A stretch of 64,000 bases of DNA from Eledone cirrhosa. Its lineage: Eukaryota. The stretch is taken from contig OZ024741.1 of the NCBI GenBank assembly GCA_964016885.1, positions 275,528,001 through 275,592,000 on the forward strand. Reading direction: 5' to 3'. Shown here piece by piece: positions 44,415 to 49,712 of this stretch (position 1 is the first letter of the stretch; each line of letters starts with the position of its first letter). Made by a program: the position numbers and the translations under genes. The notes beneath the pieces were generated by a model, which saw nothing but the letters and a program-made list of their open reading frames with translations, was not told where the DNA came from and did no database searches.

Positions 44415-49712
<5,298 letters not shown>

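Follow-up and report, generated by a model that had tools for sequence, protein, structure and literature searches.

The window, a stretch of 64,000 nucleotides of the Eledone cirrhosa genome, contains three elements composed of tandem non-coding retrozyme units of 485, 525 and 595 nt, each unit carrying a type I hammerhead motif. Each of the three is inserted in a (TA)n tract and is built of two arms in head-to-head orientation. Both arms of the 485 array stop at (TA)n directly in front of one of two predicted bulged hairpins: the plus arm (46866-49601, 5.6 copies) before the first (hairpin 1; this end is termed site 1), the tail-bearing minus arm (44494-46867, 4.9 copies) before the second (hairpin 2; site 2). 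In the 525 element (54863-55704) the minus arm ends at site 2 (~54863) and the inverted plus arm at site 1 (~55704); in the 595 element (59630-61184) the minus arm ends at site 2 (~59630) and the plus arm at site 1 (~61184), so that each of the three elements has one arm at each site. The units show a Penelope-like layout with a fixed 3' end, variable 5' truncation, an inverted 5' copy and a tail on one end.

The hammerhead of the 485 unit (47020-47102, plus strand), recognised by sequence, is of type I with a long stem II and a short stem III with a self-complementary loop; the cut is predicted after 47097. The 595 hammerhead (60428-60517, plus strand, predicted cut after 60512) was recognised by sequence and fold. 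Its core (60433-60439, plus strand) is a variant in which U3 and A8 replace C3 and G8; the double change keeps the 3-8 pair, whose role is treated in PMC11167929, and is also found in Neptune-like families. The hammerhead of the 525 unit (55035-55115, minus strand, predicted cut after 55040) is a predicted ribozyme with a C opposite an A where stem II begins and with GUU as cleavage triplet, features that are kept in about 12,000 pattern matches (stem III part). The 525 element itself is nested: it lies in a (TA)n tract between the inverted arms (54321-54818 and 55745-56300) of another hammerhead-like element with cores at 54579 (plus) and 55991 (minus). Genome-wide, the long-stem-II hammerhead pattern had 50,827 matches from many families versus 6,657 for the control, a count that includes false matches from a LINE ORF. 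The hammerhead finder missed most copies of the 595 family and its clusters include false calls, making it unsuited to family counts. A 115-codon frame in the 485 unit (47260-47610, plus strand, running through the hammerhead) was rejected as a coding relic: it is not kept in 9 other loci, where the longest frame spans 45-77 codons in 8 cases and was scored as 0 in one.

Several further repeats and gene fragments are found in the window. Positions 1-20160 form a 20-kb array of a G/T-rich unit of 24 bp (a multiple of three) with 91% matches. An array of 480-bp units (31044-34092) carries a minimal hammerhead on the minus strand. A broken PLE ORF of Neptune-like look (37471-39693, minus strand; 47-58% identical to locus L061) is accompanied by a hammerhead-like core near 37085 (minus strand), and its tail has a different hairpin. 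At about 58150-58350 an N run adjoins a LINE-like RT fragment, with a further hammerhead core at 58357. In an Rfam scan of the window the 150 matches listed, out of 517, were all spurious and sub-threshold, mostly miRNA models on repeats.

The original prediction had placed a shared 15-nt motif downstream of the ribozyme in the three units and had read it as a functional signal that defines one lineage of large-stem-II retrozymes. The exact 15-mer is indeed present at 47208-47222 (plus) and 54944-54958 (minus), and a variant with three mismatches at 60650-60664 (plus) in the 595 unit. Measured from the hammerhead cut its distance is 110 nt in the 485, ~81 nt in the 525 and ~138 nt in the 595 unit, in agreement with the values predicted. 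It was likewise correct that the 480 array has zero matches and that the 525 and 595 units have a block AUGYAUCUGUGUGU in common. Pairwise alignment of the units gives short blocks only, so they do not align throughout. The 15-mer pattern has 15 matches in the window versus 2.8 expected, and 0/100 shuffles reach 15. The 485 array accounts for 10 of them, the 525 element for 2 and the 595 element for 3; tandem copying has multiplied what are three independent occurrences. The 15-mer alone is borderline, as the best local score between the 485 and 525 units (30) was equalled in 8/300 shuffles.

Throughout the 3.0-Gb genome a degenerate version of the motif gave 8650 matches versus 9 for the reversed control; the matches are mostly copies of four families, and the 30 loci examined fall into three of these, namely the 595, the 485 and a fourth family. 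Locus L085, considered as a fifth motif family, turned out to be a chance antisense match within a PLE ORF. Of the ribozyme-picked copies that have hairpin 1, 12/19 in the 485 family and 0/20 in the 525 superfamily contain the exact 15-mer, and the last 4 nt of the 15-mer are probably incidental.

Rather than a 15-nt sequence motif, the signal is structural: an arm further upstream belongs to it, and a twin of the whole lies downstream. The last 4 nt of the 15-mer are variable. The hairpin follows the pattern RYUC - upper stem - variable loop - upper stem - UH - GARY, and the first 8 nt of the 15-mer at 47208-47222 are the 3' arm and the 2-nt bulge of hairpin 1, the rest being flank. Hairpin 1 of the 485 unit (47180-47215, plus strand) is predicted in both the MFE and the centroid structure (z -3.85, 0/200 shuffles), with a 4-bp basal stem, a UU bulge and an upper stem at pair probabilities of 0.85-1.0. 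In the 525 unit hairpin 1 is again found in MFE and centroid (55476-55499, minus strand, z -1.46); in the next copy, the one holding the 15-mer at 54944-54958, it lies at 54951-54974 (minus strand). Hairpin 1 of the 595 unit (60598-60657, plus strand) has a long upper stem and a broken outer pair (A-C); it is present in MFE and centroid with a z of -3.46 when folded alone, and with wider flanks the basal pair probability is only 0.17.

A second hairpin of the same type is located downstream in all four families, 60-170 nt from the first. Its stability is good in the 485 unit (47294-47313, plus strand, unit positions 197-216), where the basal stem is part of the MFE structure (z -3.54) and the bulge is drawn as a 1x1 loop. 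It is weak in the other two: in the 525 unit (55361-55381, minus strand) it appears in the MFE with a z of -0.01 and has a weak covariance-model match (E 3.8), and in the 595 unit (60765-60781, plus strand) it differs from the predicted MFE. We compared the hairpins of 21 families and subfamilies, a set hand-picked from this genome with pairing in mind. In this set the G-C and A-U pairs adjoining the bulge and the first bulge U are constant and the other pairs switch type. With 25-nt flanks the basal-pair probability is below 0.5 in 11/21 hairpins, and the first upper pair is broken in some 525 subfamilies (L263, L264, L280).

Two further aspects of the original prediction do not hold for this structure. 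The spacing from the ribozyme is not fixed, amounting to about 80, 110, 140 and more than 300 nt in the four families; insertion ends track the signal instead. Nor does the hairpin mark a large-stem-II lineage, since it is also found 3' of hammerheads with a stem II region of 10-25 nt in autonomous Hydra-clade elements. In the 480 array the descriptor finds no bulged hairpin (0/15 copies in its cluster), and this array is probably served by another PLE clade. The 485 unit and the fourth family could form a pseudoknot of the motif with a UGGUU further 3'; the 525 unit lacks it, and the idea was dropped. The 3' arm and its flank usually read GAG-NN-CUC in the metagenome loci (L281-L359) and in the compared families of this genome. 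This octamer is self-complementary, which might allow base pairing between the two hairpins or between two RNA molecules; the 485, 525 and 595 units no longer have it.

We analysed the position of insertion ends for the 485 family in 40 ribozyme-picked loci, which are 40 of the first 41 clusters listed for the ribozyme pattern (977 matches; the one skipped was L019). This pattern also catches a sister subfamily with one extra stem III base. Almost all 3' termini (55/58) fall at two sites: 37/58 at unit positions 82-85 (site 1), with hairpin 1 starting at 83, and 18/58 at 184-197 (site 2), with hairpin 2 starting at 197. The remaining 3/58 lie elsewhere. The 5' ends are scattered, none clustering on the ribozyme cut. 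Loci with two arms have one arm per site in 16/18 cases and both arms at the same site in 0/18, and loci with a single arm end at site 1 in 19/22 cases. A similar analysis of 30 loci of the 525 superfamily gave terminal copies at site 1 (14), at site 2 (11) and at other positions (3). For the 595 family we used 13 motif-picked loci, a biased set, and TA-joined ends only. Here the ends are located at 90-95 and 258-266 and the hairpins at 100 and 267; seven loci have one arm per site, and in one further locus two separate pieces each end at site 1. Since the ends are fixed at two sites, the 15-mer lies within the tail, between both. As copies stop immediately before either hairpin, the hairpins likely set the start of copying by the enzyme.

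An enzyme for the ORF-less units was sought among the PLEs of this genome. A first-look search for GIY-YIG domains in the whole genome gave 10,596 candidates; the PLEs picked in this way, Neptune-like by eye, were rejected as partners, with the motif in their own tail in 0/50 loci. Three Neptune-like families (e.g. L034, L049, L057, L062, L075; set L031-L075) have copies that end at either of two (TA)n positions. A tail hairpin of another kind (ACUC-GUGU-loop-ACAC) is common to two of these families, and the third has a close variant (by eye); this hairpin is located 3' of the ORF and begins a few nt after site 1.

Picking by the ribozyme led to locus L158, in which a hammerhead is followed by the hairpin and then by an ORF, and whose family has many open frames of 758 codons. 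Locus L191 was taken as a candidate partner. By eye its 729-aa ORF has RWR (for RWK), DKT, CxCX5C, CxxC and CxH and is without CCHH. The ORF is single and short, encodes a C-terminal GIY-YIG-like nuclease, has upstream of it a hammerhead and, after this, the hairpin, and fits the description of Hydra elements in the feature list used for comparison (PMC8557442, section 11). By motif description L191 is thus a candidate Hydra-clade PLE; a Pfam search of the ORF gave no informative match. Basic segments near residues 52-54 and 496-501 are kept in the protein family, with arginines R52, R54, R499 and R501 conserved. The L191 family, the best-preserved autonomous Hydra family here, shows hairpin 1 and the two end sites (L135, L212), and by eye no second bulged hairpin despite site 2. 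In a second Hydra-type family (L060) both hairpins precede the ORF. Searching the four units with 121 Hydra-like proteins (tblastn) gave no match inside them. The link to Hydra elements therefore rests on the shared hairpins, the end positions and the (TA)n target, from which we infer a partnership of the units with a Hydra-type element.

An independent set of hairpins came from metagenomic relatives. 1324 homologues were found, and an alignment of 40 retrieved 79 metagenomic loci, the best segments being 36-45% identical. The hairpin descriptor had been adjusted before these sequences were seen (bulge starting with U, upper stem of at least 2 bp). In marine metagenomic Hydra relatives the hairpin was present in 28/42 intervals downstream of a hammerhead versus 2.5 expected from shuffles; the 14 intervals without a match were kept in the denominator, several of them being false hammerhead calls, copies ending at site 1 or descriptor misses. 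The controls gave 5 matches on the reverse strand and 2/35 in upstream intervals. As judged by eye, a pair of hairpins spaced by about 55-85 nt is present in most full 5' regions, and the 3' copies frequently break off at (TA)n immediately before hairpin 1 (L298, L299, L317). Other copies stop ~50-60 nt past hairpin 1 (L289, L318, L322, L337, L339, L354), which by eye corresponds to the start of hairpin 2 in tandem copies. A scan of viral_contigs found relatives among 0/59 candidates.

When the arms were picked by sequence alone, upper pairs 1-3 were Watson-Crick in 40, 29 and 24 of 46 distinct hairpins, with mis-picks kept and one anchor without an upstream arm excluded. The corresponding shuffle means were 21.2, 13.3 and 11.8, and the observed values were never reached in 5000 shuffles. 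On the sense strand G-U pairs outnumber A-C mismatches by 12 to 6. The bulge is UU in 27, UC in 14 and UA in 5 hairpins; its first U, the G and the A belonged to the search anchor. In an alignment of 33 selected well-formed sequences (A2) 162/162 cells are paired with 17 two-sided changes (0/500 shuffles), where the covariation counts ignore relatedness. A 33-position covariance model built from the metagenomic hairpins had no significant match in the window, the best relevant one having an E of 3.8. In our view the hairpin has very probably been under selection as an RNA structure.

Part of the 15-mer coincides with the 3' arm of hairpin 1, and each of the two predicted hairpins is probably a binding site that positions an RT start, as suggested by the covarying stems, the two sharp end sites, the insertions with one arm per site and the presence of such hairpins in front of Hydra ORFs. 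The earlier idea of a conserved functional signal, possibly for RT recognition, is supported in this form and not as a 15-nt sequence motif. Alternatively, the signal could act at the DNA level, the ends being fixed by the endonuclease or a later joining step that recognises the tail in the form of double-stranded DNA or of a cDNA hairpin. The Penelope endonuclease of D. virilis needed the tail to recognise plasmid DNA, as recounted in PMC11167929, and the GAG-NN-CTC flank of most families is self-complementary like a dimer site. Nevertheless we regard this as unlikely: compensatory changes across a variable loop require a single strand, and the excess of G-U over A-C on the sense strand weakly favours RNA over the cDNA strand. 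In addition, site-1 ends leave no hairpin in the product, so that the hairpin must have acted on the template.

The ends might also be set by TA microhomology with the target only, the hairpin being a relic or serving another step such as translation, packaging or RNA stability. Both sites contain TA, site 1 of the 485 unit is the longest TA run of that unit, and the L191 family has site 2 without a visible hairpin 2. However, longer TA runs are present but unused in the tails of the 525 and 595 units, the used sites comprising only 2-4 TA bases, and microhomology does not predict the arm-per-site arrangement of 16/18 loci. Metagenomic copies, too, end just before hairpin 1 or 2 (by eye), and we consider such an origin of the ends quite improbable. 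Still less credit can be given to an internal promoter or transcription-factor element built on the direct repeat CATTG-n5-CATYG, which was among the original suggestions and would be in line with the internal promoters of PLE pLTRs (PMC8557442) and with the position of the element upstream of the ORF in autonomous copies: the second CATTG is found in 0/20 of the 525 superfamily and is absent from the metagenomic relatives, and conservation tracks base pairing rather than sequence. Neither this promoter reading nor that of a ligation signal gained support. Residual homology or chance without any function, as the borderline 15-nt identity could suggest, is a very improbable account overall and for the hairpin largely refuted, because the hairpin is kept with compensatory changes where proteins are ~40% identical and coincides with insertion ends, although it stands for the last 4 nt of the 15-mer.

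Non-LTR retrozymes of animals have been proposed to be non-autonomous derivatives of PLEs (PMC7229834; bioRxiv 10.64898/2026.07.22.740005). Like the units described here they are tandem and non-coding with one type I hammerhead each and a low GC content (PMC7229834). The units here measure 485-595 nt, and the retrozyme texts covered here (PMC7229834; 10.64898/2026.07.22.740005) describe no cis-element for mobilisation; according to Li et al. 2026 the mechanism of retrozyme mobilisation remains to be elucidated (10.64898/2026.07.22.740005). The Penelope tail (PMC3846280) and the hammerheads of PLEs (PMC4209133) are already known. Hydra-clade PLEs with a C-terminal endonuclease (EN+; Craig et al. 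2021, PMC8557442) share with the units the (TA)n targets, a canonical hammerhead, a tail on one end and tandem as well as inverted 5'-truncated copies. Unlike these PLEs, the window units have no ORF and a tail of ~110-175 nt instead of 30-40 nt (PMC8557442). The main text of PMC8557442 has 0 occurrences of the word hairpin and no mention of a twin bulged hairpin.

The best studied comparison is Poseidon_Ac (Frangieh et al. 2024, PMC11167929), in which two internal RT starts 3' of the hammerhead bound the genomic tail, both target strands are cut and RNA 3' of the first start is required. The Poseidon protein, a predicted dimer, cuts both strands of AT-rich DNA in vitro, and RNA is needed out to +172, the first start being at +111-118 (PMC11167929). 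There the starts lie at an AC-rich stem-loop inside the ORF, and the text defines no conserved binding motif (PMC11167929); here, in a different clade, they lie 5' of non-coding twin hairpins. A literature search found no description of the hairpin pair in the texts covered, which were main texts with few subscription papers among them. The twin bulged hairpin appears to be a cis-acting RNA element not described before, in retroelements of a known kind.

The hairpin can be compared with the arginine sandwich motif of HIV TAR and 7SK SL1, RNAs of a different biology. Relative to the loop it has the opposite polarity to TAR: its bulge is in the 3' strand, and the G-C and A-U pairs lie on the side of the stem base. 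Both TAR and 7SK resemble it in the paired purine, the essential first bulge U and the free second base, followed by G-C, A-U and usually G-C pairs. TAR requires U23 and specific flanking G-C pairs and leaves position 24 free (PMC11885821), and in 7SK the segment A39-U40U41-G42-A43 contributes to a U40:A43-U66 triple (Pham et al. 2018, PMC6189040). By analogy the hairpin may form an arginine pocket, which we consider a real, if not quite even, possibility. The resemblance to TAR comprises only ~7 bases, and convergence without an arginine ligand could produce it. In L1 twin priming the two target strands prime on the RNA, yielding a 5' inversion, and the second start is located at variable internal sites. 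Unlike this, both starts of the present elements are fixed and each adjoins a hairpin.

We propose that a Hydra RT-endonuclease, supplied in trans, would bind the hairpins, perhaps via an arginine-pocket fold in which, as in HIV TAR and 7SK, a bulged U lies above one G-C and one A-U pair. The enzyme would nick both strands of a (TA)n tract, and priming would take place 0-10 nt 5' of hairpin 1 from one nicked end and directly 5' of hairpin 2 from the other. Synthesis of both cDNAs would proceed in the upstream direction over variable distances, with multimeric or circular RNA as template, and the products would be joined head to head. What lies between the starts, hairpin 1 and the 15-mer included, would then constitute the Penelope tail, present on one end only, and the 3' element required in Hydra-type RNAs would be the bulged hairpin. 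That a TAR-like hairpin pair docks a dimeric telomerase-related RT-endonuclease at two fixed starts, one per nicked strand, in Hydra-clade PLEs and in retrozymes living as their parasites, is a more tentative suggestion than the pocket itself. In PLEs generally, starts may be set by a downstream hairpin.

RNA recognition by PLEs, their one-sided tail and their inversions were open according to Craig et al. 2021 and were partly answered by Frangieh et al. 2024. If the proposal is true, programmed twin priming would explain both the Penelope tail and the head-to-head inversions, and a portable RNA tag of ~25 nt would make any RNA a substrate for (TA)n-targeted insertion. It would also bear on the internal positioning of the template by telomerase-related RT. 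A covarying hairpin beside each start would give a mechanistic reason for unalignable ORF-less retrozymes sharing one mobilising enzyme.
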